Of a stretch of DNA of 64,000 nt, positions 36,520 to 64,000 are shown in pieces. A program made the position numbers and the translations under genes. Within the stretch, counting starts at the first letter, position 1, and each line of letters starts with the position of its first letter. The notes below the pieces were generated by a model, which saw nothing but the letters and a program-made list of their open reading frames with translations, did not search any database and was not told the DNA's origin. Source of the stretch: Escherichia coli. Lineage in GTDB: Bacteria > Pseudomonadota > Gammaproteobacteria > Enterobacterales > Enterobacteriaceae. The stretch lies in the NCBI RefSeq assembly GCF_003018255.1, contig NZ_CP027440.1; one strand, written 5' to 3'.

Positions 36520-36552
36520 GCCGGATATGGCGTGAACGCCTTATCCGGCACA
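36520..36552. repeat. REP element between convergent mnmC and yfcL
   Basis: gccggatatggcgtgaacgccttatccggcac. Confidence 0.75.
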
Positions 36553-36556
36553 TTAC

Positions 36557-41822: not shown

Positions 41823-41937
41823 ATGCTGGCATCGAATGCTGTAGAGGGAAAGTTCGCCTTAGCCATCATATCATAAAACAGACGCCGGAAATGACGACAG
41901 GGCCAGATGGCCCCGTCGACTTGTGAAAATATCGTCA

Positions 41938-42780
41938 CTACAATTCATTCAGTACATACTGGAATCGGCACGTAGAATCAATCGGTTGTCGGCTACTGGT
42001 GTTCACATTTACCACGATATCATGTAGCTGTTTATCGGTTACCGGATGCCGTGTGGGAGAAACCGTTACCGTTGATTTATCGCAACCGTAGGAGGTAAAG
42101 GTTAACAGTTCCGAGACCACGCGGCAGTATGCACCTCTGCTATCAAAAACGCTGCCATCACAGAGTTTGCCATCTTCCATCAGGTAGGTCGAAAGCGTGG
42201 TGGTGATTGTCGAGCCATTGGATTGCAACTGTAACGCCTTATTGTGGCTGACGTAATTCTCACTCCACGAGATGTCATACGACGCGACAGGGATCGTCGG
42301 ACATACTGTGGCATGGTTCGTTGGCCCAGTATATCTCCCGAATCCGGGTTGATCTGTGATCGTATAAAAAGAAGCGAGCCACGGGCAACCATAACTGTCG
42401 GACTGAACGGTTATCTTAAACGTCTCATATGCACACTGAAATGTCGCCGTATTTATCCCAGGACAATTCGAGCTATCAGCATTACCGTAGTCAGTTAAGA
42501 TCAACACTGGCGCTGGTCCCGACCCCGTCCACGAAATAACGCTGGCTTGCTCGTTCTTCCTTATGGCATCGTTGTACACCCCATAGGCCGCCTCGTTGGG
42601 AGTTAACACCGTGACATACAAACCTCCGGTGTTATGAATAGACATTTTCCCCTTCCCATAATAAATCTTCACACTGTCGAAACTCGCGCTGGTGAGTTTA
42701 TCCCCGGCATAGCTCTTTGGAACGCTCGCACTCATCACCAGCAACACCAGGCTCGCAAAAATCATTGTCCATTTTTTCAT
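41938..42780 (-). CDS. yfcO: Yfc fimbrial operon protein YfcO (likely tip/adhesin-like component)
   Basis: ORF track 295 aa; likely start at MKKWTMIFASLVLLV signal peptide; exact start uncertain. Confidence 0.75.
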   Translation of the reverse strand: MKKWTMIFASLVLLVMSASVPKSYAGDKLTSASFDSVKIYYGKGKMSIHNTGGLYVTVLTPNEAAYGVYNDAIRKNEQASVISWTGSGPAPVLILTDYGNADSSNCPGINTATFQCAYETFKITVQSDSYGCPWLASFYTITDQPGFGRYTGPTNHATVCPTIPVASYDISWSENYVSHNKALQLQSNGSTITTTLSTYLMEDGKLCDGSVFDSRGAYCRVVSELLTFTSYGCDKSTVTVSPTRHPVTDKQLHDIVVNVNTSSRQPIDSTCRFQYVLNEL

Positions 42781-42781
42781 G

Positions 42782-43306
42782 TTAAAAATACTCAAAGGTT
42801 GCCGTCGCCGTAGCGCTGAAATCACCGGACGTCACATCCCGCCCGCCCTTCGCCTGTAGCCAGGCATTAAAATTGAGACTGTTATTGCCCTGGTTTAGCG
42901 GGAACGTGACACCCGTTGTGCTGTTGACTGGCACCGCCGCGCCTGCCGCCGTTTCAATACCAATCCCAGCTCCGGATGCAGAAGATGAGGCGTCAAAGGC
43001 CAGAAATCCGGGCAGTTCGCTATCTTCCGTTCCCGTCAGCGTTACCCTGACGCTAAACAGCGTGGAGCTTTTGCAATCCTTCAATTGAAATACCAACGGT
43101 ACTCGCTCTGACTGCCCGAGGTTCATTAAATCGCTGGCGGCAATGGTGGGAAAGTGCACCTCCGCCAACAGGCTACCGTTGATCACTGGCGTACAGGATT
43201 TACCGAGCAAATTACCGGTAAAGTGCAGGTTGTCGACCGCCGGGGCAGTAACGCTGTACAACAGCATCAGGCTACAGATAAAAACCAACGCACGCTTTTT
43301 CTTCAT
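42782..43306 (-). CDS. yfcP: Fimbrial minor subunit YfcP
   Basis: 174-aa ORF with signal peptide, fimbrial-subunit-like C-terminus. Confidence 0.85.
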   Translation of the reverse strand: MKKKRALVFICSLMLLYSVTAPAVDNLHFTGNLLGKSCTPVINGSLLAEVHFPTIAASDLMNLGQSERVPLVFQLKDCKSSTLFSVRVTLTGTEDSELPGFLAFDASSSASGAGIGIETAAGAAVPVNSTTGVTFPLNQGNNSLNFNAWLQAKGGRDVTSGDFSATATATFEYF

Positions 43307-43773
43307 TGATAATCCACCTGTAACGTGGCCCAGGCTTCAAAGTCTGCCTCAGGCAAATCGACACCGCTCTTTTTGACCGGTACTGCGGTTAACACCGGTA
43401 AGGCCGTTTCATTCACCACCAGTGCCGTATTGAGCTTAAAGCTCTGCCCTGCCTGTTTAAGCCGAATCGCCAGGCCAGAGATATCGGTGCTAACCGCGGC
43501 ATCGTCAAAGTCGCTCTGCGTACCGCTCCAGCTCAATTTCATTTCCATTGATGGGTCGCGAACCGCCGTATCACAGGTAATGGAATACGGCACGGTTTGC
43601 TCATAGTTACTGCCATTAATGTCATCAACAAAAACATCCTGAAAGGTTATTTCAATGGTTTTACCGTTGCTAATAGTGCAGTTAGGTGGCTGCACTAAAT
43701 AGCCGTGAAAAGAGACATTTGAGAGTGCCATCGAGCTAAAGCCCCACAGCATAAGAAGTGAGATCCGTTTCAT
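43303..43773 (-). CDS. yfcQ: Fimbrial minor subunit YfcQ
   Basis: 156-aa ORF; signal peptide. Confidence 0.85.
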   Translation of the reverse strand: MKRISLLMLWGFSSMALSNVSFHGYLVQPPNCTISNGKTIEITFQDVFVDDINGSNYEQTVPYSITCDTAVRDPSMEMKLSWSGTQSDFDDAAVSTDISGLAIRLKQAGQSFKLNTALVVNETALPVLTAVPVKKSGVDLPEADFEAWATLQVDYQ

Positions 43774-44276
43774 TGGTAATCCACCACAATTGTGGCACTG
43801 GCGTTAAATTCCGCTGCCGATAAGGTTGTACCACTCTGTTTCACCGGCACTGCTTCGAGTGCAGGGACGCCCGAGGAAAAATTAAACGGCAACCATGAAC
43901 CAGACGTTAAGTCGAGTGTTGAGTGATCACTACTTTTCTGAACCCGAATACCAAACCCTGAAATACCTGTGCTGATAACTGTTTCACCGTTGATCACAAC
44001 CGTTGTTGCCCGCATCTGTAAACGCAGGTCATCCATTGCCAGGTTGTTACAAACAAGCGAGTAATCAATGGGTTGTTTATAACCTACCCCATCGATCTTA
44101 TTGATGAATACATTACCAAACTCAACCGTCGCACCATTAACCGTGCAAGGAGGAGGGGCATCAACGAGCACTCGTAAACTCAAATTTACTGATTTACTCC
44201 CTGCAACTGCAAAGTCGCTACCAATACAACACATCAGTAACCATGTTCCCGCCCAGACTGAACAAGATCTTTTCAT
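43770..44276 (-). CDS. yfcR: Fimbrial minor subunit YfcR
   Basis: 168-aa ORF; signal peptide. Confidence 0.85.
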   Translation of the reverse strand: MKRSCSVWAGTWLLMCCIGSDFAVAGSKSVNLSLRVLVDAPPPCTVNGATVEFGNVFINKIDGVGYKQPIDYSLVCNNLAMDDLRLQMRATTVVINGETVISTGISGFGIRVQKSSDHSTLDLTSGSWLPFNFSSGVPALEAVPVKQSGTTLSAAEFNASATIVVDYQ

Positions 44277-44292
44277 ACTTACTTCCCCGTCA

Positions 44293-45042
44293 TTAACCTT
44301 TGCGGCTCAGCTCTTCATCAACCTGACAACTGTTGCCGCTACAGGTGAAAAAGAGTGGCATCCGTGCGCCATAGTCGTTGACATAGGTCAGCACCGGCAC
44401 GCTAGCCATCTTCACCTTGAGCGGTGCGGAGGTTTTTGGCGACATCACTATCGGCGAGAAACCGTCTGCCGGATTGCCATTTTTTTGCGCGCTGGCATTA
44501 CTGAAAATGACGTAATACGGAGTAGGGTTATTGACGGTAAATTCCTGACCGTTACGGGTTAAGGTCACTTTATGCTGCCATGGGTTTTGCATGCTAGCTT
44601 TTTCCAGGGCTTTAGGTCGCCAGAAAAGTTTGATGCGTGTCTGCAGCGCAATTTGTAACGTATTGGCTTTGTTCGATTTCGGCGGAATTTCACGCACATT
44701 GAAATAAAATATCGATTCACGATCGGCAGGCAATTTATGGATATCTGGCAATCCCTGAATTTTCACCTGACCATTCATCATTGCATCAATGCGCTGTACG
44801 GGGGGCAATACTGCCAGCGGCGAACTAATCTTGACGCCCTTTTCATCTTCGATCCAGCTTTGTGCCAGATAAGGCTGTTTCGGGTCGTTATTACGCAGCG
44901 TGACGCTGATGGATTTATCGCTTTCATTAAAAATCAGGCGAGTACGATCGGGCGTTACTGACGCCAGAGCAGAAAAACTTACCGTTGCAGCCAGTAACGA
45001 CAGTACCGTTGCCAATGTTTTGACAGAGAGATGTTTAGTCAT
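44293..45042 (-). CDS. yfcS: Periplasmic fimbrial chaperone (PapD-like)
   Basis: 249-aa ORF; signal peptide. Confidence 0.9.
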   Translation of the reverse strand: MTKHLSVKTLATVLSLLAATVSFSALASVTPDRTRLIFNESDKSISVTLRNNDPKQPYLAQSWIEDEKGVKISSPLAVLPPVQRIDAMMNGQVKIQGLPDIHKLPADRESIFYFNVREIPPKSNKANTLQIALQTRIKLFWRPKALEKASMQNPWQHKVTLTRNGQEFTVNNPTPYYVIFSNASAQKNGNPADGFSPIVMSPKTSAPLKVKMASVPVLTYVNDYGARMPLFFTCSGNSCQVDEELSRKG

Positions 45043-45061
45043 GGATCATTCCTTAATCACG

Positions 45062-47701
45062 TTATTGGTTCGATGAAACAGACATCGGCGGTTCCATTGG
45101 TGTCACCTGTTGTGTCTGCTCCTGAATTACAGGTTGAATATCATGCGTTATGACGGGAGCACTTCCCCCTTTTTGCTGGCATGGCAACAACAAGCCATTG
45201 AACAGGTCATTCGGTAACGGATCTGGCAGGCTGATATCGCAGTGAGATTCTCCCTCCCAGAAAACGGTCATATGTTCACCCGGCTTAACGCCTGCAAGAT
45301 AAACATTACCTTCGTCATCAACCAGCCCAACTTGTTGTTGATTATCGTTTTTCACTTCCGCCCCAAATGGCGGATGGCTGCCATCCTGCAAGCGCAGCAC
45401 TACCATCGCCTTCTCACCGCTGATCACCGCAAATTTACGGTAGCCAATAGCGCCTTCCGTCAGCGTTGCCTGGACCACCGATTGGGTAGCTTCGGCGTTT
45501 TCCGGTAGTTTGTTCAAATCGATATAAGCCTGGTTACGGTAGTAATCATTAACATCTGCCACCACCGCTTTCCCGAACATGTTGGTATAAACGGCGGAAC
45601 CATTACCTTCGACCGGCACATTAGCAACGCCATCGGCGTCGATTAGCAGACGTGTGCCTCCCATATTTTGCGTACGATGCAACGCCCCGCCGTGAGCAGT
45701 CAGTGTTACACCGCCCTGTAAGGAGACCCCCGCAGATGTGTATTGCCCCTCATGGTAGTTTGCACTCAGGTCAACTTTTGCCAGCGTACCGTCATGACTG
45801 TAATAACCATCAAGACTGGTGTGATTTTCACTGGTTCCGGCGCTCAACGTATAGTGGCTAGCGTCATCGATGCGGTGATACAAACTCGCCTGGCTGCTGT
45901 CGGCACCACTGCCATAATTGCCGTTGTAACTGATGGTGCTGTTGTCACCCCATGGCAAACTCAAGGACAGATAAACACCTTTGTCGGCACTTTTATCATA
46001 TTCGTAGCGATAACCGGTGAGAGAAACGCTCAGGTTGCGAAGACTTCCTAAATTGAAATAATGAGAAAGCATCATGTTGTAGTTGGTCTGATCCTCGCGA
46101 TCCCAATAGGTATGGTGAGAATAATTGAGATAGACCGAAACGCGCGCATCCCTAAAGTTCTGGTTGTAAGTGACCGTGTACATTTCCTTGTCGTTACCCG
46201 TGCGCGCACGGTCGGTGTCGTTCGCATCCAGATACTCACTCATGGTCATGTAGTTTTTTTCAGAGAAGCGATATCCGGCAAACGTCACCCGACTGTTGAG
46301 TTCATCGAAATCTTTGGCATAGCTGACGCGATAAGAGTTGCCGTCCAGCGTTTTGTTGCCATACACGCTGTTATCGTCGAGTTGAACACGAGAGTGAGTG
46401 ACATCAAACGCTAGCGCTCCGAACAGCGCGAGGTCACGACCGAGGCCTAACGCTGCCGACTGGTAGTTTTCATCGGCCAATGCCCCGCCGTAGAGCGACC
46501 AGCCATTCGCAATCCCCCATGACGCCTCACCGCCCGAGAAGAAGCTGCCTGCAACCTGATGGTCCCAGTTTTGTGGACGCCCCATTGTCACTTTGTAACG
46601 CACCTGACCGGGGCGGGTCAGAAACGGCATGGACGCCGTGCTGACGTCATATTCCTGTACCTGACCGTTTTGTTCTTCAATGCGGACATGCAGCGTGCCA
46701 GATACGGAATCGCCAATATCCTGAATGCGGAATGGACCTGCGGGCACCTGGGTTTCGTAAATGACACGGCCCATTTGGGTTACGGTCACTTTAGCGGTAG
46801 TGTGTGCAACGCCGGAAATATCGGGTGCGTAGCCGCGCATGTTTGGCGGTAACATTTGATCATCGGTACTGATGCTGCCGCCAATGTAACTGAAGCCATC
46901 AAAAATATCGGAGTTGAGATAATCTTCACCCAGCGAAAGTTTGGCTTTTAATGACGGCAAGGCGCGCCAGGCGTAGTAACGGCTCCACTCCCAGTTTTTT
47001 TGCGTACCGCTATCATCAGTGTCGCCGTCATCGTTACTGCGGGTATGTTGGTAATCGCTCTGCCAGTCGGCTCGTAAGCGCCACGGCCCCACGTTAACGC
47101 CGACCGTACCATTACCGCTGATGTCGTTAGTGTCATCCCCCCCATTTTCATGTCGGGTTTGTGCGTTGATACTGTAATCGGCAATAAGCCCAGGAATCCC
47201 CTCATCCCAACGCGAAGGTGGGTCCCAGTCATCGTCAGTGTATTCGAGATATGCCTGTGGCACAGAAACTAAGAGCGCAGATTGACTTAAATCGCCCTTA
47301 ATTTCCATACCTCCTATTTGGTCAGTTTTCAGACATTGTCCATCATGACCCCATTGCAAACTCTTCGCAAAATCATCTTTGAAGCCAAACTGGGCTATCA
47401 GTTCAGGTGGTAAGCAGGCATATGATTTATTCGGATCGTTTTCAGCTACATACCAATAGATATCGTATTCATCAGGTAATGGGTGATTATTTACATGAAC
47501 ACGTAAATTGTATTTCCCTGGTTCAACATACCCTTTTTGAGAAAAACGCCCCAGATCAATTTTGGTATTTCCTTTTAACTCCAGAAATCGAGCATCAAAT
47601 TGAATGGTATCATCTGCCAGTACATTAAAAGGACTCCCGGAAATTGCCAGAGCAATCCACCATGAAAGCCCCCGTAAACGAAGAAAAGAATGTTCAGGCA
47701 T
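45062..47701 (-). CDS. yfcU: Outer-membrane fimbrial usher, intact
   Basis: 879-aa uninterrupted ORF; FimD/PapC-like usher; interrupted in K-12. Confidence 0.9.
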   Translation of the reverse strand: MPEHSFLRLRGLSWWIALAISGSPFNVLADDTIQFDARFLELKGNTKIDLGRFSQKGYVEPGKYNLRVHVNNHPLPDEYDIYWYVAENDPNKSYACLPPELIAQFGFKDDFAKSLQWGHDGQCLKTDQIGGMEIKGDLSQSALLVSVPQAYLEYTDDDWDPPSRWDEGIPGLIADYSINAQTRHENGGDDTNDISGNGTVGVNVGPWRLRADWQSDYQHTRSNDDGDTDDSGTQKNWEWSRYYAWRALPSLKAKLSLGEDYLNSDIFDGFSYIGGSISTDDQMLPPNMRGYAPDISGVAHTTAKVTVTQMGRVIYETQVPAGPFRIQDIGDSVSGTLHVRIEEQNGQVQEYDVSTASMPFLTRPGQVRYKVTMGRPQNWDHQVAGSFFSGGEASWGIANGWSLYGGALADENYQSAALGLGRDLALFGALAFDVTHSRVQLDDNSVYGNKTLDGNSYRVSYAKDFDELNSRVTFAGYRFSEKNYMTMSEYLDANDTDRARTGNDKEMYTVTYNQNFRDARVSVYLNYSHHTYWDREDQTNYNMMLSHYFNLGSLRNLSVSLTGYRYEYDKSADKGVYLSLSLPWGDNSTISYNGNYGSGADSSQASLYHRIDDASHYTLSAGTSENHTSLDGYYSHDGTLAKVDLSANYHEGQYTSAGVSLQGGVTLTAHGGALHRTQNMGGTRLLIDADGVANVPVEGNGSAVYTNMFGKAVVADVNDYYRNQAYIDLNKLPENAEATQSVVQATLTEGAIGYRKFAVISGEKAMVVLRLQDGSHPPFGAEVKNDNQQQVGLVDDEGNVYLAGVKPGEHMTVFWEGESHCDISLPDPLPNDLFNGLLLPCQQKGGSAPVITHDIQPVIQEQTQQVTPMEPPMSVSSNQ

Positions 47702-47786
47702 CTACGTATCCATCCATGATTATTATAATTTAGTTATCTTTTATTTATAAACCCCATAACATTGCAGTTATGGGGGAACAGCATAA

Positions 47787-48353
47787 TTAGAGATATGTAA
47801 TCTGGAACGTCGTTAGCGTTTCAAACGGCGCTGGGGTTGGTGTTACCGCTGCAGTTTCACCTACTAACCAGGCTTTAAAGTTCAACGTTTGTTTCTGTTT
47901 GCCTTTTCCTGTTGAACTGTCCATCGCGATGTCCTGATCGATGCCTGCCCCCAGGTCATAACCAGTACCACGTTGGTCGCCAATCACCAGACTTACATTT
48001 GGAATTTCAGTTCCATTATCCATGTTAGACAGGGAATAGTTTTTTGAGTTGCCGGAGTACGGATTACCAGTGAATGTCGTGGTCATTGTCGTTTCAGTAT
48101 TGAAATTACAATCCTGTAAACGAATCTGGAAATCTTTAGGTGTGGTAGTCTTGCCACCGGTTAAAGAACCTGTACCAATGCTGCCCATATCCACTTCCAG
48201 TTTATGATCGTCAGGAACAATCGAGCACGGAGAGTCTTCAATTGTGCCGTAAAATCTCACTGTACCGTTGTTACCTGCGGCAACGACTGATGCTGAAGTC
48301 AGCGCCCCCATGAGCATTGCCGTGGCAACTGCTGCTTTTACAAACTTACTCAT
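47787..48353 (-). CDS. yfcV: Fimbrial major subunit YfcV
   Basis: 188-aa ORF; signal peptide; C-terminal ..TFQITYL donor-strand motif. Confidence 0.88.
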   Translation of the reverse strand: MSKFVKAAVATAMLMGALTSASVVAAGNNGTVRFYGTIEDSPCSIVPDDHKLEVDMGSIGTGSLTGGKTTTPKDFQIRLQDCNFNTETTMTTTFTGNPYSGNSKNYSLSNMDNGTEIPNVSLVIGDQRGTGYDLGAGIDQDIAMDSSTGKGKQKQTLNFKAWLVGETAAVTPTPAPFETLTTFQITYL

Positions 48354-48960
48354 TATTTGTCCTTAAATCATAAATAATTAGAATATAAGCCAACTGAAAT
48401 ATTGACGCAGAGCTTCTTCAATTTTTACAGCGACTTTTAACCAGCCAATGAACAGATTTTCAGCTCCTGAAAAAACAGGTTCCTTGATATAATATTCTTT
48501 GGCGTGCCGAACATATTGATATTTTAATATGACTGACGCAATTTAGATTTTCTAACATTCAAAGTTAGAAATGCTTAATTAATAGGCAGGAATAATAATT
48601 ACTGAAATTTTTCATCTCAATCATGAAGAATAAGTTCAAAAAAACGGCAAATGCAAAAACCCAGTGAATAAATTAAAGTCAAAAACAATCACATGGCAAT
48701 GACTATCTTGTGATATTAATTTCGCAACGATATAATATTAAAACACTATAATTAATATAAAATCAAGACCCAATTATATTTTTCACTTTAGTCATTATTT
48801 ACCTAAAAATGCTTCCAGAAAAATAATTTATGAATAAAAGTAAATTCTCTTTCAATATGTAAATTTTTACAAATAAAAGCGTCATGCCGTATAAAATAAA
48901 GACCATTCGATCACAAGCGGATCATTGTTAGTACAATAAGATTGAATAAATTCAACATTG
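48354..48960 (-). promoter_or_regulatory. AT-rich upstream regulatory region of the yfc fimbrial operon
   Basis: ~600 bp strongly AT-rich non-coding sequence 5' of yfcV; typical of nucleoid-protein-silenced fimbrial promoters. Confidence 0.5.
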
Positions 48961-48961
48961 C

Positions 48962-49000
48962 CAGAAAAAATAAAGGCCCGATAGCTTACGCCAGCGGGCC
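48962..49000 (-). terminator. Rho-independent terminator downstream of sixA
   Basis: hairpin ggcccg..cgggcc followed on minus strand by tttattttttc. Confidence 0.7.
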
Positions 49001-49013
49001 TTGTGCATGCGTA

Positions 49014-49499
49014 TTAAATCGCCTTTGCCATCTTCAAATTACATGGGCTCATCTGCCAGTTAAATGTGCCGTTTCCGCTTTCATCAAGCGTTACGCTGGC
49101 AATGGCCGAGGTGGTAAACATAGGCGGCGTTTCGCCCGGACATAACTCAGCAACCAGATACCCGACTAAGGGTAAGTGGGAGATCACCAGTACCGAAGCA
49201 ACACCTTCATTGGTCAACGCCTGCAAATAGGCACTGACCAGACCAACATCGCCGCAGGGCGTTAACTCCGGCAGAACTTCTGCACTGGAAGGCAGGTTCA
49301 GACAATCCCCTACTTCTTCAAGTGTTTGCTCGGCTCGCAGGAACGGGCTCACCAGAACGCGTTCGATTTCCACTTTTTGACCTTTCAGCCAGTTCGCCAT
49401 CAGGCGAGATTCGTCACAACCGTTAGTGGTCAGAGGACGAACCGAATCACTGGCGGCATCGAGGGCTGCGTCGCCGTGACGCATGATAAAAACTTGCAT
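49014..49499 (-). CDS. sixA: Phosphohistidine phosphatase SixA
   Basis: 161-aa ORF; MQVFIMRHGDA (RHG motif). Confidence 0.94.
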   Translation of the reverse strand: MQVFIMRHGDAALDAASDSVRPLTTNGCDESRLMANWLKGQKVEIERVLVSPFLRAEQTLEEVGDCLNLPSSAEVLPELTPCGDVGLVSAYLQALTNEGVASVLVISHLPLVGYLVAELCPGETPPMFTTSAIASVTLDESGNGTFNWQMSPCNLKMAKAI

Positions 49500-55394: not shown

Positions 55395-56150
55395 TTATTC
55401 AGAATCGATATCTTTTAAATCATCCTGAATCGCTTGCGCGTTCGGATTTTCCTGCGGTTTGAGTTCGCCGCCATTAGCGATGAAATCATGACGCTGGAAG
55501 TACGCTTCGCGCACCATAATATAAGGATCGGACGACTGACGCAGCAGACCATCGGAATCCAACAACTGCGCACGAGTTTCTATCCCTTCAAGCGTCCATT
55601 TACCCACAGACATCGGCCAGGTCAGCCAGGAAAGAACCGGGTAAAGACCATCCGCCATATCACCACCGTCATCACGCAGCGTGAAGCTACCGTAGAACGG
55701 TAACTGAACGTATGGCCCATAACCCACACCATAATGACCAAGCGTACTACCGAAGCGGTGAGGTTCAGTCCGTTGCAGTTTCGGGTTCGCCATCCCTGCA
55801 ACATCAATAAAGCCGCCCATCCCCAAAATGGTGTTCAGGAAAAAGCGGGTAAAGTGGACCATCCCCTGATAAGGGTCGCCCTGCAAGAAGTAGTTAACCA
55901 TCACCGCAGGTTCTTCAAGGTTGCCAGTAAAGTTGCTCAAACCGTTACGCGCCGGTTGCGGAACATAATCACGCCAGGCGACAGCGACCGGTCGAACAAT
56001 ATACGGGTCTAATACATTGAAATTGAAGTTGTACATGGTGCGGTTGAACCCTTCTAGCGGGTCAGAACGCCCTTGCTGATCTGTACCGGAACTCGCACAC
56101 CCCACCAGAAGCGTAGTTCCCAGAGCAAGCGCCGACAGGCGAAGCTTCAT
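55395..56150 (-). CDS. mlaA: Outer-membrane lipoprotein MlaA (VacJ)
   Basis: 251-aa ORF; lipobox LLVGCASS. Confidence 0.93.
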   Translation of the reverse strand: MKLRLSALALGTTLLVGCASSGTDQQGRSDPLEGFNRTMYNFNFNVLDPYIVRPVAVAWRDYVPQPARNGLSNFTGNLEEPAVMVNYFLQGDPYQGMVHFTRFFLNTILGMGGFIDVAGMANPKLQRTEPHRFGSTLGHYGVGYGPYVQLPFYGSFTLRDDGGDMADGLYPVLSWLTWPMSVGKWTLEGIETRAQLLDSDGLLRQSSDPYIMVREAYFQRHDFIANGGELKPQENPNAQAIQDDLKDIDSE

Positions 56151-56443
56151 AAATGTCTCCCTGTTTTTTTATGGCTTATGCAGTTTGCCATCCATGACGG
56201 AACGATACCGTATCCGCCTGTTTAGGTGTGGGCGATTGTAACAGCACGTCAACTGATGTCCAGACGCCCTGATTTGCTGATTTGATCATAGCCTGGTAAT
56301 CGCCGCCCTGTAGGCTACTTGATTCTATAGAAACAGAAAAAGGCAAACGCAGCCTTTTCTACATTTTCAGAGTAACTCCCGCCAGTTGCGAGCAAAAAAG
56401 CCGCTACGCTTTAGCTATACGTGCTAATTCAAGAGAAGAGACC

Positions 56444-57376
56444 ATGGACAACGACAAAATTGATCAACACAGCGACGAAATTGAAGTTGAGAGCGAAGAA
56501 AAAGAGCGCGGCAAAACAATAGAAATAGATGAAGATCGACTCCCCTCCCGGGCGATGGCAATTCATGAGCATATCCGCCAGGATGGTGAAAAAGAGCTGG
56601 AACGCGACGCAATGGCACTACTGTGGTCAGCCATTGCGGCGGGTCTGTCGATGGGCGCTTCGCTACTGGCAAAAGGGATATTTCATGTCGAACTGGAAGG
56701 CGTGCCGGGCAGCTTCTTGCTGGAGAATCTCGGTTATACCTTTGGTTTTATTATCGTCATTATGGCCCGCCAGCAATTATTTACCGAAAACACCGTGACT
56801 GCGGTACTACCCGTCATGCAAAAACCGACAATGAGCAACGTTGGCTTACTTATGCGGTTATGGGGCGTCGTGCTGCTGGGTAATATTCTCGGGACAGGTA
56901 TTGCGGCGTGGGCATTTGAATATATGCCAATCTTCAATGAAGAAACTCGCGATGCATTTGTCAAAATCGGCATGGATGTGATGAAGAACACCCCCAGCGA
57001 GATGTTTGCCAACGCGATCATTTCCGGCTGGCTGATCGCCACTATGGTTTGGATGTTTCCTGCAGCGGGTGCGGCAAAGATTGTGGTGATTATATTGATG
57101 ACCTGGCTTATTGCCCTGGGTGACACCACTCACATCGTTGTCGGTTCTGTTGAAATCCTCTATCTGGTGTTTAACGGTACGCTGCACTGGAGCGATTTCA
57201 TCTGGCCCTTCGCACTACCTACTTTAGCGGGGAACATCTGCGGCGGCACCTTTATCTTCGCGTTAATGAGTCATGCACAGATCCGTAACGACATGAGCAA
57301 CAAGCGCAAAGCAGAAGCACGCCAAAAAGCAGAACGTGCGGAAAACATTAAGAAAAATGATAAAAACCCGGCATAA
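56444..57376 (+). CDS. yfdC: Formate/nitrite transporter-family inner membrane protein YfdC
   Basis: 310-aa ORF; synteny immediately upstream of argW. Confidence 0.88.
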   Translation: MDNDKIDQHSDEIEVESEEKERGKTIEIDEDRLPSRAMAIHEHIRQDGEKELERDAMALLWSAIAAGLSMGASLLAKGIFHVELEGVPGSFLLENLGYTFGFIIVIMARQQLFTENTVTAVLPVMQKPTMSNVGLLMRLWGVVLLGNILGTGIAAWAFEYMPIFNEETRDAFVKIGMDVMKNTPSEMFANAIISGWLIATMVWMFPAAGAAKIVVIILMTWLIALGDTTHIVVGSVEILYLVFNGTLHWSDFIWPFALPTLAGNICGGTFIFALMSHAQIRNDMSNKRKAEARQKAERAENIKKNDKNPA

Positions 57377-57451
57377 ATGGCGAGGGTTTAAGCAATCGAG
57401 CGGCAGCGTACTTACCCCGCAGTCCATTAGCGGGTATACTCATGCCGCATT

Positions 57452-57526
57452 GTCCTCTTAGTTAAATGGATATAACGAGCCCCTCCTAAGGGCTAATTGC
57501 AGGTTCGATTCCTGCAGGGGACACCA
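57452..57526 (+). tRNA. argW: tRNA-Arg (anticodon CCU)
   Basis: 75-nt sequence read directly, matches argW as recalled; anticodon loop cuCCUaa; ends ..ACACCA. Confidence 0.95.
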
Positions 57527-57646
57527 GATACCCTTCAAACCAAATCTACCTTCACCCCGTAAAAGATGGGTTTGGCAGCACACTTGCCCTATATCTACTC
57601 ATTTTTACTGCAACAGGTTGAAATCTCAGCACTGTCAGAAAGCGCT

Positions 57647-57888
57647 GATGACTAAACAGCCCTGGGCCGGGCGATGTAACCATCATACAGAATCCTGATA
57701 GCGAAATATGGCGTGACTCGATACTTCACTCTGCAATGCATTCCTTGATGAATTCGCAGGCCCGTGATACACGGGACACGTGGCTGAATGACGACAATGT
57801 CCTGGAAATCAGCGAACCGCGTATCCGGAGTACATTTGAGCGACTGTACCAGAACATGAATGAGGCGTTTGGATTAGGTGATTATTAG
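57647..57888 (+). other. Orphan reading-frame fragment of unknown origin
   Basis: open frame of ~79 codons ending ..NDDNVLEISEPRIRSTFERLYQNMNEAFGLGDY*; no convincing start or RBS identified. Confidence 0.3.
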
Positions 57889-57967
57889 CAGGGGTAAGCA
57901 TTTTTGTATTATTATTTTCCGGTTGAGGGATATGGAGATATCGACAACAACCGGAAAAAGTTTACGT

Positions 57968-59215
57968 CTATATTGCTGAAGGTACAGGCGTTTCCATAAC
58001 TATTTGCTCGCGTTTTTTACTCAGGAAGAAAATGCCAAATAGCAACATCAGGCAGACAATACCCGAAATTGCGAAGAAAACTGTCTGGTAGCCTGCGTGG
58101 TCAAAGAGTATCCCAGTCGGCGTTGAAAGCAGCACAATCCCAAGCGAACTGGCAATTTGAAAACCAATCAGAAAGATCGTCGACGACAGGCGCTTATCAA
58201 AGTTTGCCACGCTGTATTTGAAGACGGATATGACACAAAGTGGAACCTCAATGGCATGTAACAGCTTCACTAATGAAATAATCCAGGGGTTAACGAACAG
58301 CGCGCAGGAAAGGATACGCAACGCCATAATCACAACACCGATAAGTAATGCATTTTTTGGCCCTACCCGATTCACAAAGAAAGGAATAATCGCCATGCAC
58401 AGCGCTTCGAGTACCACCTGGAATGAGTTGAGATAACCATACAGGCGCGTTCCTACATCGTGTGATTCGAATAAACCTGCATAAAAGACAGGAAAGAGTT
58501 GTTGATCAAAAATGTTATAGAAAGACCACGTCCCCACAATAAATATGACAAAAACCCAGAAGTTTCGATCCTTGAAAACTGCGATAAAATCCTCTTTTTT
58601 TACCCCTCCCGCATCCGCCGCTATGCACTGGTGATCCTTATCTTTAAAACGCATGTTGATCATCATAAATACAGCGCCAAATAGCGAGACCAACCAGAAG
58701 TTGATATGGGGACTGATACTAAAAAATATACCAGCAAAGAACGCGCCAATAGCATAGCCAAAAGATCCCCAGGCGCGCGCTGTTCCATATTCGAAATGAA
58801 AATTTCGCGCCATTTTTTCGGTGAAGCTGTCAAGCAAACCGCATCCCGCCAGATACCCCAGGCCAAAAAAGAGCGCCCCCAGAATTAGACCTACAGAAAA
58901 ATTGCTTTGCAGTAACGGTTCATAAACGTAAATCATAAACGGTCCGGTCAAGACCAGAATGAAACTCATACACCAGATGAGCGGTTTCTTCAGACCGAGT
59001 TTATCCTGAACGATGCCGTAGAACATCATAAATAGAATGCTGGTAAACTGGTTGACCGAATAAAGTGTACCTAATTCCGTCCCTGTTAATCCTAGATGTC
59101 CTTTCAGCCAAATAGCGTATAACGACCACCACAGCGACCAGGAAATAAAAAAGAGAAATGAGTAACTGGATGCAAAACGATAGTACGCATTTCTGAATGG
59201 AATATTCAGTGCCAT
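57968..59215 (-). CDS. cscB: Sucrose:H+ symporter (MFS)
   Basis: 415-aa ORF; MALNIPFRNAYYRFASSYSFLFF.. recognised as CscB. Confidence 0.93.
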   Translation of the reverse strand: MALNIPFRNAYYRFASSYSFLFFISWSLWWSLYAIWLKGHLGLTGTELGTLYSVNQFTSILFMMFYGIVQDKLGLKKPLIWCMSFILVLTGPFMIYVYEPLLQSNFSVGLILGALFFGLGYLAGCGLLDSFTEKMARNFHFEYGTARAWGSFGYAIGAFFAGIFFSISPHINFWLVSLFGAVFMMINMRFKDKDHQCIAADAGGVKKEDFIAVFKDRNFWVFVIFIVGTWSFYNIFDQQLFPVFYAGLFESHDVGTRLYGYLNSFQVVLEALCMAIIPFFVNRVGPKNALLIGVVIMALRILSCALFVNPWIISLVKLLHAIEVPLCVISVFKYSVANFDKRLSSTIFLIGFQIASSLGIVLLSTPTGILFDHAGYQTVFFAISGIVCLMLLFGIFFLSKKREQIVMETPVPSAI

Positions 59216-59286
59216 AATTACCTGCCTGTCGTTAAAAAATTCATGTCCTATTTAGAGATAAGAGCGGCCTCGCCGTTTACTTCTCA

Positions 59287-60201
59287 CTATTCCAGTTCTT
59301 GTCGACATGGCAGCGCTGTCATCGCCCCTTTCGCCGTTACTGCAAGCGCTCCGCAACGTTGAGCGAGATCGATAATTCGTCGCATTTCTCTTTCATCTGT
59401 AGATAATCCCGTAGAGGACAGACCTGTGAGTAACCCGGCAACGAACGCATCTCCCGCCCCCGTGCTATCGACACAATTCACAGACATTCCAGCAAAATGG
59501 TGAACTTGTCCTCGATAACAGACCACCACCCCTTCTGCACCTTTAGTCACCAACAGCATGGCGATCTCATACTCTTTTGCCAGGGCGCATATATCCCAAT
59601 CGTTCTGTGTTTTTCCACTGATAAGTCGCCATTCTTCTTCCGAGAGCTTGACGACATCCGCCAGTTGTAGCGCCTGCCGCAAACACAAGCGGAGCAAATG
59701 CTCGTCTTGCCATAGATCTTCACGAATATTGGGATCGAAGCTGACAAAACCTCCGGCATGCCGGATCGCCGTCATCGCAGTAAATGCGCTGGTACGCGAA
59801 GGCTCGGCAGACAACGCAATTGAACAGAGATGTAACCATTCGCCATGTCGCCAGCAGGGCAAGTCTGTCGTCTCTAAAAAAAGATCGGCACTGGGGCGGA
59901 CCATAAACGTAAATGAACGTTCTCCTTGATCGTTCAGATCGACAAGCACCGTGGATGTCCGGTGCCATTCATCTTGCTTCAGATACGTGATATCGACACC
60001 CTCAGTTAGCAGCGTTCTTTGCATTAACGCACCAAAAGGATCATCACCGACCCGACCTATAAACCCACTTGTTCCGCCTAATCTGGCGATTCCCACCGCA
60101 ACGTTAGCTGGCGCGCCGCCAGGACAAGGTAGTAGCCGCCCGTCTGATTCTGGCAAGAGATCTACGACCGCATCCCCTAAAACCCATACTTTGGCTGACA
60201 T
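59287..60201 (-). CDS. cscK: Fructokinase (PfkB family)
   Basis: 304-aa ORF; ribokinase-family motifs (..DSTGAGDAF..). Confidence 0.9.
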   Translation of the reverse strand: MSAKVWVLGDAVVDLLPESDGRLLPCPGGAPANVAVGIARLGGTSGFIGRVGDDPFGALMQRTLLTEGVDITYLKQDEWHRTSTVLVDLNDQGERSFTFMVRPSADLFLETTDLPCWRHGEWLHLCSIALSAEPSRTSAFTAMTAIRHAGGFVSFDPNIREDLWQDEHLLRLCLRQALQLADVVKLSEEEWRLISGKTQNDWDICALAKEYEIAMLLVTKGAEGVVVCYRGQVHHFAGMSVNCVDSTGAGDAFVAGLLTGLSSTGLSTDEREMRRIIDLAQRCGALAVTAKGAMTALPCRQELE

Positions 60202-60306
60202 TTTTTTCCCTTAAATTCATCTGACTTACGCATAGTGATAAACCTCTTTTTCGCAAAATCGTCATGGATTTACTAAAACATGCATATTCGATCACAAAAC
60301 GTCATA

Positions 60307-60318
60307 GTTAACGTTAAC
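60307..60318. promoter_or_regulatory. Putative CscR operator 1 (perfect 12-bp palindrome)
   Basis: gttaacgttaac in the cscK-cscA divergent intergenic region. Confidence 0.5.
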
Positions 60319-60370
60319 ATTTGTGATATTCATCGCATTTATGAAAGTAAGGGACTTTATTTTTATAAAA

Positions 60371-60382
60371 GTTAACGTTAAC
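60371..60382. promoter_or_regulatory. Putative CscR operator 2 (same 12-bp palindrome)
   Basis: second exact copy of gttaacgttaac, 64 bp from the first, ~35 bp upstream of cscA start. Confidence 0.5.
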
Positions 60383-60416
60383 AATTCACCCAATTTGCTT
60401 AACCAGGATGATAAAA

Positions 60417-61850
60417 ATGACGCAATCTCGATTACATGCGGCGCAAAACGCACTAGCAAAACTTCACGAGCGCCGAGGTAACACTTTCTATCCCCATTTT
60501 CACCTCGCGCCTCCCGCCGGGTGGATGAACGATCCAAACGGCCTAATCTGGTTTAACGATCGTTATCACGCGTTTTATCAACATCACCCGATGAGCGAAC
60601 ACTGGGGGCCAATGCACTGGGGACATGCCACCAGCGACGATATGATCCACTGGCAGCATGAGCCTATTGCGCTAGCGCCAGGAGACGAGAATGACAAAGA
60701 CGGGTGTTTTTCAGGTAGTGCTGTCGATGACAATGGTGTCCTCTCACTTATCTACACCGGACACGTCTGGCTCGATGGTGCAGGTAATGACGATGCAATT
60801 CGCGAAGTACAATGTCTGGCTACCAGTCGGGATGGTATTCATTTCGAGAAACAGGGTGTGATCCTCACTCCACCAGAAGGCATCATGCACTTCCGCGATC
60901 CTAAAGTGTGGCGTGAAGCCGACACATGGTGGATGGTAGTCGGGGCGAAAGATCCAGGCAACACGGGGCAGATCCTGCTTTATCGCGGCAGTTCATTGCG
61001 TGAATGGACTTTCGATCGCGTACTGGCCCACGCTGATGCGGGTGAAAGCTATATGTGGGAATGTCCGGACTTTTTCAGCCTTGGCGATCAGCATTATCTG
61101 ATGTTTTCCCCGCAGGGAATGAATGCCGAGGGATACAGTTACCGAAATCGCTTTCAAAGTGGCGTAATACCCGGAATGTGGTCGCCAGGACGACTTTTTG
61201 CACAATCCGGGCATTTTACTGAACTTGATAGCGGGCATGACTTTTATGCACCACAAAGCTTTTTAGCGAAGGATGGTCGGCGTATTGTTATCGGCTGGAT
61301 GGATATGTGGGAATCGCCAATGCCCTCAAAACGTGAAGGCTGGGCAGGCTGCATGACGCTGGCGCGCGAGCTATCAGAGAGCAATGGCAAACTTCTACAA
61401 CGCCCGGTACACGAAGCTGAGTCGTTACGCCAGCAGCATCAATCTATCTCTCCCCGCACAATCAGCAATAAATATGTTTTGCAGGAAAACGCGCAAGCAG
61501 TTGAGATTCAGCTGCAGTGGGCGTTGAAGAACAGTGATGCCGAACATTACGGATTACAGCTCGGCACTGGAATGCGGCTGTATATTGATAACCAATCTGA
61601 GCGACTTGTTTTGTGGCGGTATTACCCACACGAGAATTTAGATGGCTACCGTAGTATTCCCCTCCCGCAGGGTGACATGCTCGCCCTAAGGATATTTATC
61701 GATACATCATCCGTGGAAGTATTTATTAACGACGGGGAGGCGGTGATGAGTAGCCGAATATATCCGCAGCCAGAAGAACGGGAACTGTCGCTCTATGCCT
61801 CCCACGGAGTGGCTGTGCTGCAACATGGAGCACTCTGGCAACTGGGTTAA
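60417..61850 (+). CDS. cscA: Sucrose-6-phosphate hydrolase / invertase (GH32)
   Basis: 477 aa from MTQSRLHAAQN..; GH32 N-terminal motif WMNDPNG. Confidence 0.93.
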   Translation: MTQSRLHAAQNALAKLHERRGNTFYPHFHLAPPAGWMNDPNGLIWFNDRYHAFYQHHPMSEHWGPMHWGHATSDDMIHWQHEPIALAPGDENDKDGCFSGSAVDDNGVLSLIYTGHVWLDGAGNDDAIREVQCLATSRDGIHFEKQGVILTPPEGIMHFRDPKVWREADTWWMVVGAKDPGNTGQILLYRGSSLREWTFDRVLAHADAGESYMWECPDFFSLGDQHYLMFSPQGMNAEGYSYRNRFQSGVIPGMWSPGRLFAQSGHFTELDSGHDFYAPQSFLAKDGRRIVIGWMDMWESPMPSKREGWAGCMTLARELSESNGKLLQRPVHEAESLRQQHQSISPRTISNKYVLQENAQAVEIQLQWALKNSDAEHYGLQLGTGMRLYIDNQSERLVLWRYYPHENLDGYRSIPLPQGDMLALRIFIDTSSVEVFINDGEAVMSSRIYPQPEERELSLYASHGVAVLQHGALWQLG

Positions 61851-61857
61851 CATAATA

Positions 61858-62853
61858 TCAGGTGGAACAACGGATCAACAGCGGGCAAGGGATCCGCGTC
61901 ACTCTTCCCCCTTCACGATCTTCAATAATATGCAATGCAGCTTCCCGCCCGATAATGTCATGTGGAAGCTGAATTGTGGTCAGCGGCGGTAAAAACAGAT
62001 GCCCGACGCCAACCAGATTATCAAAGCCCATTACGGCGACATCCTGCGGGATACGTACCCCCTTCGCCAGGAGAACCTGATAAGCGACAAAGGCTGCGCG
62101 ATCGTTACCACATATCAGAACATCAAAATCTGGTTTGCCCGATTTGAAGTGGTCATTGAGTAAACTTGCGAGATCGGTGTAGTGATCATCACCTGTTGCC
62201 ATGTGAAATTGTTTCACCTCAGCCAGATCTCGTCCAGCATCACGCCAGGCCTGCTCAAATCCCTGCCGACGATACCCTGTTGCCAACGCACTTTCCGGTA
62301 GCCAGAAGCATAACGGTTGACGATAGCCCGCCGCGAGCAAATGCTGTGTTGATTCATATTGTGCAGTGTAATCATCAGGGATATAACTGGGTAACGCTGG
62401 GTCATCCGCCACACAGTTCGCCAATACAATATTTTCACCATACAGAGACTCAGGCAGCGAGATATGTCGCAGCCCCATTGTAGTATAGATAATGCCATCC
62501 GGACGGTGGGCAAGCAGCTGACGTGCCGCGCGGGCAGCGTCATCTTCAGAAAAAATATTGATTAAAAAACTATTCCAGCCAAACTCGCTGGCGGTTTGCT
62601 CAATGGCAAGCAGAATATCAACAGAGAAAGGAGTGGTGGCCGTGTCCTGCGCCAGCACGGCGAGAGTCGACGGCTTACGTCCTTGAGCGCGCATCTTACG
62701 GGCGGAAAGATCAGGAACATAATTCAGGGTCTGGATTGCCTGCAATACGCGGTCACGCGTTGCAGGACGCACAGATTCTGCATTATGCATCACCCGGGAG
62801 ACTGTCATCATCGACACTCCCGCCAGGCGTGCGACATCCTTTAATGAAGCCAT
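61858..62853 (-). CDS. cscR: LacI-family sucrose operon repressor
   Basis: 332 aa from MASLKDVARLAGVSMMTVSRV (HTH); ORF track over-extended upstream to 63051. Confidence 0.9.
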   Translation of the reverse strand: MASLKDVARLAGVSMMTVSRVMHNAESVRPATRDRVLQAIQTLNYVPDLSARKMRAQGRKPSTLAVLAQDTATTPFSVDILLAIEQTASEFGWNSFLINIFSEDDAARAARQLLAHRPDGIIYTTMGLRHISLPESLYGENIVLANCVADDPALPSYIPDDYTAQYESTQHLLAAGYRQPLCFWLPESALATGYRRQGFEQAWRDAGRDLAEVKQFHMATGDDHYTDLASLLNDHFKSGKPDFDVLICGNDRAAFVAYQVLLAKGVRIPQDVAVMGFDNLVGVGHLFLPPLTTIQLPHDIIGREAALHIIEDREGGRVTRIPCPLLIRCST

Positions 62854-63095
62854 ACCCAAGCCGTTTGCCGTAAAACGGGCACTGTAGCAGAAACAGACGT
62901 CACTGGCGAGATCCAACGATATTCTCAACGCCCTATCACCCGACACGGCAATACAATAAAAAATAACAATAATTCCCGGACAATTGTACCCAATTCCGCC
63001 TCTGTTCTCGCCAACGAGTAACCATGTAGGCAAGTAGGTAAAACATGCCAACTGGCATCGCCAACCTGGAGAAGAAAATATAAATATGGATCATT

Positions 63096-63314
63096 GTGCT
63101 GCCGCTGTATCCCGACATCAGTCCGGAAATTATTGCGATTGCTATCGGTTCAGGTGCGATTGGCTGCACGATCGTTACGGACTCGCTTTTCTGGCTGGTG
63201 AAGCAATATTGCGGCGCTACGCTCAATGAAACATTTAAATACTATACGACAGCGACATTTATCGCTTCAGTCGTCGCTCTGGCGGGCACATTCCTGCTGT
63301 CATTTATCATCTAA
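63096..63314 (+). pseudogene. dsdX: 3' remnant of D-serine transporter gene dsdX (last ~72 codons)
   Basis: translation ..[71 protein letters not shown] matches DsdX C-terminus; no N-terminal part upstream. Confidence 0.85.
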
Positions 63315-63331
63315 GCGCAAAGAGACGTACT

Positions 63332-64000
63332 ATGGAAAACGCTAAAATGAACTCGCTCATCGCCCAGTATCCGTTGGTAAAGGATCTGGTTGCTCTTAAA
63401 GAAACCACCTGGTTTAATCCTGGCACGACCTCATTGGCTGAAGGTTTACCTTATGTTGGCCTGACCGAACAGGATGTTCAGGACGCCCATGCGCGCTTAT
63501 CCCGTTTTGCACCCTATCTGGCAAAAGCATTTCCTGAAACTGCTGCTACTGGGGGGATTATTGAATCAGAACTGGTTGCCATTCCGGCTATGCAAAAACG
63601 GCTGGAAAAGGAATATCAACAACCGATCAGCGGGCAACTGCTACTGAAAAAAGATAGCCATTTGCCCATTTCCGGCTCCATAAAAGCACGCGGCGGGATT
63701 TATGAAGTCCTGGCACATGCAGAAAAACTGGCTCTGGAAGCGGGGTTGCTGACGCTTGAAGATGACTACAGCAAACTGCTTTCTCCGGAGTTTAAACAGT
63801 TCTTTAGTCAATACAGCATTGCTGTGGGCTCAACCGGAAATCTGGGGTTATCAATCGGCATTATGAGCGCCCGCATTGGCTTTAAGGTGACAGTACATAT
63901 GTCTGCTGATGCCCGGGCATGGAAAAAAGCGAAACTGCGCAGCCATGGCGTTACGGTCGTGGAATATGAGCAAGATTATGGTGTTGCAGTCGAGGAAGGA
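63332..64000 (+). CDS. dsdA: D-serine dehydratase (5' partial; continues past window end)
   Basis: [31 protein letters not shown]..; PLP-lysine region ..SGSIKARGG. Confidence 0.95.

Follow-up and report, generated by a model that had tools for sequence, protein, structure and literature searches.

Positions 57527–63096 of the Escherichia coli stretch analysed here (contig NZ_CP027440.1 of assembly GCF_003018255.1; all 64,000 nucleotides of it are referred to as the window) very probably constitute the chromosomal csc regulon, which serves sucrose catabolism independently of the phosphotransferase system (PTS), at its usual E. coli site between the tRNA gene argW and a 3′ stump of dsdX. The csc block at argW is already known, is not a new system and is ordinary; the csc regulon of EC3132, W and O157:H7 was reportedly described by Bockmann in 1992 and Jahreis in 2002, and the variable argW-dsdCXA region by Moritz & Welch in 2006. 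The additions made here refine the history of this known locus and concern a putative island relic behind a boundary that is exact to the tRNA end, junctions that appear to be older than a split between Escherichia lineages, and the presence of csc in phage records, which is probably an artefact of prophage prediction.

The csc Regulon between argW and dsdX

Four uninterrupted open reading frames (ORFs) fill the block, and their protein products contain no internal stops. The genes that an earlier note, made from the sequence alone, had named for this block (cscB, cscK, cscA and cscR) were confirmed by NCBIfam profiles and by identities of 98.5–99.8% to the RefSeq Csc proteins, which were taken from isolate NRZ104446: CscB is identical to the “cscB sucrose MFS transporter” (MFS, major facilitator superfamily) at 414 of 415 residues, CscK to RefSeq cscK at 303 of 304, CscA to the “cscA sucrose hydrolase” at 470 of 477, and CscR to the “sucrose operon repressor CscR” at 329 of 331. 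The profile TIGR00882 covers residues 9–399 of CscB with its positions 1–396, and TIGR01322, the profile matched by CscA, bears the name of the sucrose-6-phosphate hydrolase family. For CscR, the NCBIfam matches are to the LacI family only, and all of them fall under the equivalog cut-offs. All four proteins of a csc regulon, namely CscB, CscK, CscA and CscR, are present, and their layout, which consists of cscB-cscK, a divergent cscA, a convergent cscR and two putative operators, agrees with that given in a 2024 paper. The start of cscA used here is that of the L001 annotation; an alternative in-frame ATG is located three codons upstream, at 60408.

Both ends of the block were defined by pairwise alignment with L002, a prophage-free reference genome in which argW is followed by dsdC, dsdX and dsdA. 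On the left, where fadL, mlaA and yfdC precede argW, the window is identical to this dsdCXA-type genome as far as 57526, the final base of the tRNA, beyond which the two cannot be aligned, in agreement with the earlier claim that core synteny stops at the tRNA 3′ end. On the right, homology returns at 63097 (TGCTGCCG...), within dsdX, at codon 374 of its 445 codons. The earlier statement that dsdX resumes in the middle of the gene is therefore correct, but the position given for it, 63096, is the G of a fortuitous GTG, at which the start of the RefSeq pseudogene has also been placed and at which a 72-codon ORF spanning the dsdX remnant begins (63096–63314, plus strand). The remnant is 98.6% identical to K-12 and is labelled “missing N-terminus” in RefSeq. 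Both break points were reproduced by megablast searches against 5426 complete E. coli genomes and against K-12.

BLASTN and TBLASTN searches of the whole window with the K-12 prophage CPS-53, intS, dsdC and the 5′ part of dsdX (its first 373 codons) yielded the dsdX tail and nothing else. The reported absence of CPS-53, intS and dsdC thus stands, and no K-12-like dsdC-dsdX sequence was found between argW and dsdA. The csc genes lie between argW and dsdA in place of dsdC and 5′ dsdX, as is characteristic of the csc variant of the variable argW-dsdCXA region, and the assignment of the block to that region is in accordance with the configuration published for EC3132, W and O157:H7.

Among the usual features of an integrase-mediated island at a tRNA gene, the exact coincidence of the left boundary with the tRNA 3′ end was observed. 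The last 15–23 nucleotides of argW (57504/57512–57526) correspond to the attachment core, which recurs as attR in genomes with a prophage or an island at argW; attR was read directly in the genomes L005 and L018, and matches in element-bearing genomes begin at 57504 or 57512. Within the block, including its far boundary, no copy of the last 14–25 nucleotides of argW was found with up to three mismatches, that is, no attR. No tyrosine integrase was found in 57527–63096, where the four csc ORFs and a 296-bp piece of a DUF4942 gene are all that is present; because the non-coding remainder of the block amounts to only 976 bp in five pieces, no integrase or insertion sequence (IS) element fits into it. 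The earlier note had likewise seen no integrase, IS element or argW repeat, and none was found; it had overlooked a vestige of a mobile element, the DUF4942 relic at 57593–57888. The GC profile that it had proposed as a check does not single out the block by composition, as the block has a GC content of 48.1% against 51.1 ± 2.2% in segments of equal size (rank 33 of 234) and is not an outlier; low GC is limited to cscB (43.5%) and the control region (30%). argW, a tRNA-Arg(CCT) gene, is the sole tRNA gene in the window according to ARAGORN and Rfam, and the Rfam search of 56000–64000 revealed no RNA gene or regulatory RNA besides this tRNA. The coordinates of all features are listed in Table 1.

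Table 1. Features of the argW–dsdA interval, with positions in the window
Feature	Position	Strand	Basis
argW, tRNA-Arg(CCT)	57452–57526	+	ARAGORN; Rfam tRNA, 63.4 bits
Stretch following the tRNA, 66 bp	57527–57592		Weak colinear similarity to the argW-proximal (attL) arm of the 2013C-3513 island
DUF4942 relic, frameshifted, ~residues 38–151 of ~281 amino acids	57593–57888	+	Pfam PF13708; TBLASTN; RefSeq annotation
csc core module	57900–62894		BLASTN, 80–83% to Citrobacter amalonaticus L006 and L010; same gene order
Inverted repeat TTTTCCGGTTG...CAACCGGAAAA	57915–57958		Just past the cscB stop; left end of the conserved module
cscB, sucrose:H+ symporter (LacY-type oligosaccharide MFS), 415 amino acids, intact	57968–59215	−	TIGR00882, 594.6 bits (cut-off 220)
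cscK, fructokinase, 304 amino acids, intact	59287–60201	−	NF006957 equivalog, 505.9 bits (cut-off 450)
Divergent control region, cscK-cscA spacer, 30% GC	60202–60416		Repeat search; sequence inspection
cscA, cytoplasmic sucrose hydrolase (invertase, GH32), 477 amino acids, intact	60417–61850	+	TIGR01322, 478.1 bits (cut-off 356.4)
cscR, LacI-family repressor of the csc genes, 331 amino acids, intact	61858–62853	−	RefSeq homolog; LacI-family profiles
Right filler, 202 bp, upstream of cscR	62895–63096		Citrobacter homology ends ~40 bp upstream of the cscR start
dsdX 3′ remnant (codons 374–445 of 445), pseudogene	63097–63314	+	NF007395 profile positions 374–445; TBLASTN with K-12 DsdX; alignment to intact dsdX
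dsdA (D-serine ammonia-lyase), first 223 codons open, truncated by the window end	63332–64000	+	Translation; L001 annotation

Control Region and Expected Phenotype

Two copies of a 12-bp palindrome, GTTAACGTTAAC, are located in the cscK-cscA spacer, at 60307–60318 and 60371–60382, and are putative CscR operators. Between them lies a CRP-like site, TGTGATATTCATCGCA, at 60322–60337 (the coordinates being a reading of the sequence). The 2024 paper describes two 12-bp inverted repeats that flank the cscA promoter, with a Crp site adjacent. A simple promoter scan yielded fewer sigma-70 matches than shuffled sequences did, and none at the csc promoters. At the other end of the operon, the inverted repeat TTTTCCGGTTG...CAACCGGAAAA is probably the cscKB terminator; its distal arm, CAACCGGAAAA, is kept in all five aligned loci, and its proximal arm is kept in the window, in Citrobacter and in L005 and not in L004.

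From the protein families and the literature, CscB would import sucrose together with a proton, CscA would cleave the cytoplasmic sucrose to glucose and fructose, and CscK would phosphorylate the resulting fructose. CscR would repress transcription from the divergent promoters of cscKB and cscA, with the two GTTAACGTTAAC palindromes as its probable operators, and cyclic AMP (cAMP)-CRP would add catabolite control. No expression is expected of the dsdA gene, which is intact and lies downstream, since dsdC, its activator, and the first 373 codons of dsdX, which encodes the transporter, are gone; as a consequence of the loss of dsdC and 5′ dsdX, no use of D-serine is expected. The strain should, on the evidence of its gene content, fail on D-serine and use sucrose only slowly. 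These expectations are in line with published observations: the dsdA of csc strains, although intact, is silent and regains activity through deletions that join it to the promoter of cscA or of z3622 (O’Boyle et al.), while many csc-positive isolates grow slowly or not at all on sucrose (2024 paper). The same 2024 paper also holds a point against the predicted use of sucrose, as some csc-positive isolates without obvious defects show no growth on sucrose at all.

Prevalence and Relatives of the csc Module

In a megablast search, 80% or more of the segment 57300–63500 was present in 2645 of the 5426 complete E. coli genomes. Fifteen csc-bearing genomes, drawn as an evenly spaced sample of the ranking, are 95.4–99.9% identical to the window, the best being strain JNE112863 (99.9%). 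In eight of these fifteen, argW is contiguous with the block, as in the window; the matches of the other seven start at 57504 or 57512, which corresponds to an attR copy behind a prophage or an island. According to the literature, csc occurs in ~35–37% of isolates, with nearly every member of phylogroups B1, D and E carrying it and none of A or F, and supports slow growth on sucrose. E. coli W carries csc between the variable argW region and dsdX and has lost the use of D-serine, and in O157:H7 csc substitutes for dsdC and part of dsdX at a recombination hotspot; papers that describe the locus credit Jahreis et al. (2002) and Moritz & Welch (2006). Diarrhoeagenic strains and strains positive for the locus of enterocyte effacement (LEE) tend to be csc-positive and sensitive to D-serine, uropathogens keep dsdCXA, and the exchange of dsdCX for csc has been tied to niche specificity in published work. 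The csc genes have also been used to engineer production strains that are fed on sucrose.

The csc regulons of EC3132, W and O157:H7 have the same four genes as the window in the same order and orientation, the same position between argW and a truncated dsdX, and the same operator palindromes, and the window has 97.5–99.9% DNA identity to the eight sampled E. coli genomes that contain the full stretch. Nothing of substance differs from these csc loci, except that argW is adjacent to the block here, whereas many strains have a prophage or an island in between.

Outside E. coli, a scan for CscB in one genome per GTDB species detected close relatives only in Escherichia and Citrobacter amalonaticus. 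The C. amalonaticus csc genes (L006, L010) have the gene order and orientation of the window, with 80–83% nucleotide and 84–90% amino acid identity, and the terminator hairpin is kept; they differ from the window in their location, between yjfF and a methyl-accepting chemotaxis protein (MCP) gene followed by fbp, with no tRNA or dsd gene nearby, and in lacking both the DUF4942 relic and the 202-bp right filler. The Citrobacter alignment covers 57900–62894 only, so neither the DUF4942 relic to its left nor the 202-bp filler to its right belongs to the csc module. Rosenbergiella species (L007–L009, L011, L012) carry csc-like clusters that encode homologous Csc proteins, with CscB ~62% identical in amino acids to that of the window, in the order cscR-cscA-cscB-cscK and with cscK inverted relative to E. 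coli. Citrobacter freundii Cf_csc, according to its published description, encodes homologous CscB, CscK, CscA and CscR, with cscA and cscR each inverted. Neither Cf_csc nor the Rosenbergiella clusters can be aligned with the window at high DNA identity.

The scr regulon (scrK, scrY, scrA, scrB, scrR) likewise acts on sucrose with a GH32 hydrolase, a fructokinase and a LacI-family repressor, but it differs in taking up sucrose through a PTS enzyme II and a porin, in hydrolysing sucrose-6-phosphate, in supporting fast growth and in occupying other chromosomal or plasmid sites; neither scrA nor scrY is present in the window.

The right filler was found by distant BLASTN in 2691 genomes, about as many as carry csc, at a median of one place in each and on no plasmid. 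No second copy of this 202-bp segment occurs in E. coli genomes, and it is not shared with Citrobacter. Homologues of it are confined to csc loci, no remnant of a coding sequence can be recognised in it, and it presumably holds the cscR promoter. A plasmid-borne csc was considered as well and rejected: the full-length matches are to records of 0.37–4.9 Mb, of which the two annotated ones hold dsdA and look like pieces of chromosome, and genuine plasmids match the GH32 gene only, at 73%.

A Decayed DUF4942 Gene behind argW

The sequence between argW and the csc module is 373 bp long and comprises a 66-bp stretch and the decayed DUF4942 fragment. The fragment matches Pfam PF13708 with E = 1.6e-8 over positions 5–62 of the 190 model positions. 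With two full-length E. coli DUF4942 proteins as queries, TBLASTN aligned residues 76–151 at 47–49% identity (E from 1e-17 to 4e-18) and residues 38–70 in another frame, with stops present. The 296-bp relic retains ~40% of one gene, at ~48% amino acid identity. RefSeq annotates a small “DUF4942 domain-containing” ORF between argW and cscB, and the relic probably corresponds to Z3622 of enterohaemorrhagic E. coli (EHEC); z3622 is described as adjoining the csc locus, and a promoter located in the relic is termed z3622p (O’Boyle et al.).

Full-length DUF4942 genes of the 5426 E. coli genomes reach at best 72–75% nucleotide identity to the relic. An exhaustive HMMER search of 1.84 billion protein representatives detected no full-length DUF4942 protein above ~50–55% identity to it, and a word-indexed search for a closer full-length relative returned the same short E. 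coli fragments only. This absence of a close full-length relative fits a long decay of the relic. A 54-bp match to 57846–57899, the end of the relic, lies in H70 (NZ_CM176496.1, 1440083–1440136) under the annotation of a P22 gp4-like gene; this genome is otherwise without the filler, and the match may be a remnant of a csc deletion beside an argW prophage.

Full-length DUF4942 genes are found as the last gene of islands that carry Ag43, antirestriction, RadC and CbeA-CbtA genes and abut tRNA genes (ileX; serX in UTI89). The terminal gene of these CP4-44-like Ag43/CbtA-CbeA islands is homologous to the relic, and argW itself is occupied by an island of the Ag43/CbtA type in 2013C-3513, with genes oriented as the relic is. 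The order there is argW, an integrase split by IS600, an island of ~26 kb, Ag43, a YeeU homologue, attR (TTCaTTCCTGCAGGGGACACCA), the same filler and csc. The window differs from these islands in that it has no integrase, Ag43, toxin-antitoxin pair or attR. In the 2013C-3513 island (L018/L020, NZ_CP027555.1, 4749000–4776700), homology to the ileX island stops in yeeU and is followed by ~140 bp of AT-rich sequence and then attR.

The 66-bp stretch was compared with the argW-proximal arm of the 2013C-3513 island, to which it gave a local alignment score of 16 (8.9 ± 1.6 for 1000 shuffles), with the two sequences aligned at equal distances from the tRNA; the BLAST match between the window and 2013C-3513 runs 38 bp beyond the tRNA. 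No significant similarity was found between the stretch and the attL arm of K-12 CPS-53 or the argW-dsdC spacer of the dsdCXA-type genome.

Age and Origin of the Block

The junctions of the block recur in a divergent genome, L005, which is labelled E. coli and is the representative of its own GTDB species. Both its left and its right junction are as in the window; a KpLE1-like prophage ending in torI and attR is followed by a shortened filler, csc and the right junction, and the dsdX stump has an extra 104-bp deletion past the shared right junction. The csc genes of L005 are 89.4–93.0% identical to the E. coli copy; the corresponding values are 91.9% for dsdA and 90.6% for emrY. The event looks old because L005 shares the junctions and because its csc genes are as diverged as the flanking genes, which suggests one old event and not a recent or repeated insertion. 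In Escherichia sp. MOD1-EC7003 (L004), csc and the flanking yfdY-lpxP are both ~95–96% identical to E. coli. In L004 (1–1437), homology to the right filler ends at ~62963 and is followed by yfdY-lpxP, so that the right side of csc is joined to lpxP. In K-12, yfdY-lpxP lies ~15–20 kb further along the map. This arrangement implies that dsdX′, dsdA, emrYK, evgAS and their neighbours were deleted in L004, or that a rearrangement took place.

We tentatively propose, as a possibility that falls short of probable, that the csc/dsdCX alternative is an old polymorphism of single origin that has been kept across Escherichia, and that the 373-bp filler is the fossil of a collapsed Ag43/CbtA island. An Ag43/CbtA (CP4-44-like) island would have integrated at argW in a dsdCXA ancestor, thereby fixing the left boundary at the tRNA end. 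The csc module would then have replaced the 3′ half of the DUF4942 gene, attR, the 95-bp spacer, dsdC and codons 1–373 of dsdX by illegitimate recombination, and a second deletion, extending from a point shortly within the left arm to codon ~38 of the DUF4942 gene, would have taken out the island and left 66 bp of the arm and a piece of the last gene. Since then, the csc haplotype may have been spread or maintained by homologous recombination through the conserved flanks. A history of this kind would explain why the left boundary is exact to the tRNA, why attR is missing on the right and why no mobility gene is present.

Several points weigh against this proposal. An old introgression of the whole locus could equally give the matching divergence of csc and its flanks in L005. 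The account of the origin is built on a decayed fragment of 296 bp and on a weak similarity over 66 bp to a single island. The DUF4942 genes at ileX and serX adjoin the tRNA gene and read towards it, opposite to the relic at argW; because of this reversed arrangement, the orientation of the relic alone is not diagnostic. The island of 2013C-3513, which ends inside the yeeU homologue, itself lacks a DUF4942 gene. The relic might also have travelled with csc from a donor.

This last point leads to an explanation without any resident island, in which 57527–63096, relic included, was built in another species and reached E. coli in a single transfer of linear DNA, one end of which recombined within argW while the other was joined illegitimately within dsdX. 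We regard it as rather unlikely, though it is consistent with the lack of a close full-length relative of the relic in the 5426 E. coli genomes and the 1.84 billion protein representatives, and with the location of other csc modules at unrelated sites (C. amalonaticus, at yjfF/fbp; Rosenbergiella). Against this, the Citrobacter module shares 57900–62894 with the window and neither the relic nor the right filler, the 66 bp resemble the arm of an island at E. coli argW itself, and a search of the GTDB species representatives revealed no donor in which the relic and csc are joined. It is highly improbable that phages with argW as their integration site brought csc in or move it around by specialised transduction following an aberrant excision. 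The site is indeed used by P22-like, lambdoid and KpLE1-like prophages and by Stx2a phages, which lie directly beside csc in many genomes, but attR always separates the prophage from the filler. Although csc is present in four GenBank “phage genomes”, these records are PHASTER-predicted prophage regions cut from bacterial assemblies, in which csc is terminal, past the excisionase gene and attR; they represent boundary overruns and not packaged DNA, and no other phage record holds csc. The csc genes in these coliphage records (ON470594.1, L021, and three siblings, described as complete phage genomes) were accordingly set aside as probable annotation artefacts caused by the overrun of attR. That csc is ancestral at the locus and that dsdC and 5′ dsdX were inserted later in other lineages is effectively refuted: the same junctions with csc are indeed present in a divergent Escherichia lineage, but the csc haplotype carries a headless dsdX that begins at codon 374 and has neither a start codon nor a promoter, next to a dsdA orphaned from its activator, and the truncated dsdX must derive from an intact gene.

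Other Differences from K-12

The earlier description of the csc block as the only clearly accessory block in the window was overstated, as the yfc fimbrial operon is divergent and yfdF is absent. The yfc chaperone-usher fimbrial operon (41823–49017; ORFs 41938–48353, minus strand) is 74–81% identical to, or unalignable with, K-12 and 2013C-3513 (77–81% where it aligns with K-12), and its flanks are 95–98% identical. Its usher ORF (45062–47701, 879 amino acids) is uninterrupted, whereas K-12 yfcU is a pseudogene. K-12 yfdF (~1.5 kb; K-12 2462659–2464203) is absent at ~55346, where the alignment of the window runs from fadL into mlaA and leaves one base unaligned; yfdF is present in 2013C-3513 and absent in the closest genome, JNE112863. 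Between mnmC and yfcL, 72 bp of K-12 (2443817–2443888) are represented by 7 bp in the window (36548–36554), which may be a difference in a small repeat element.

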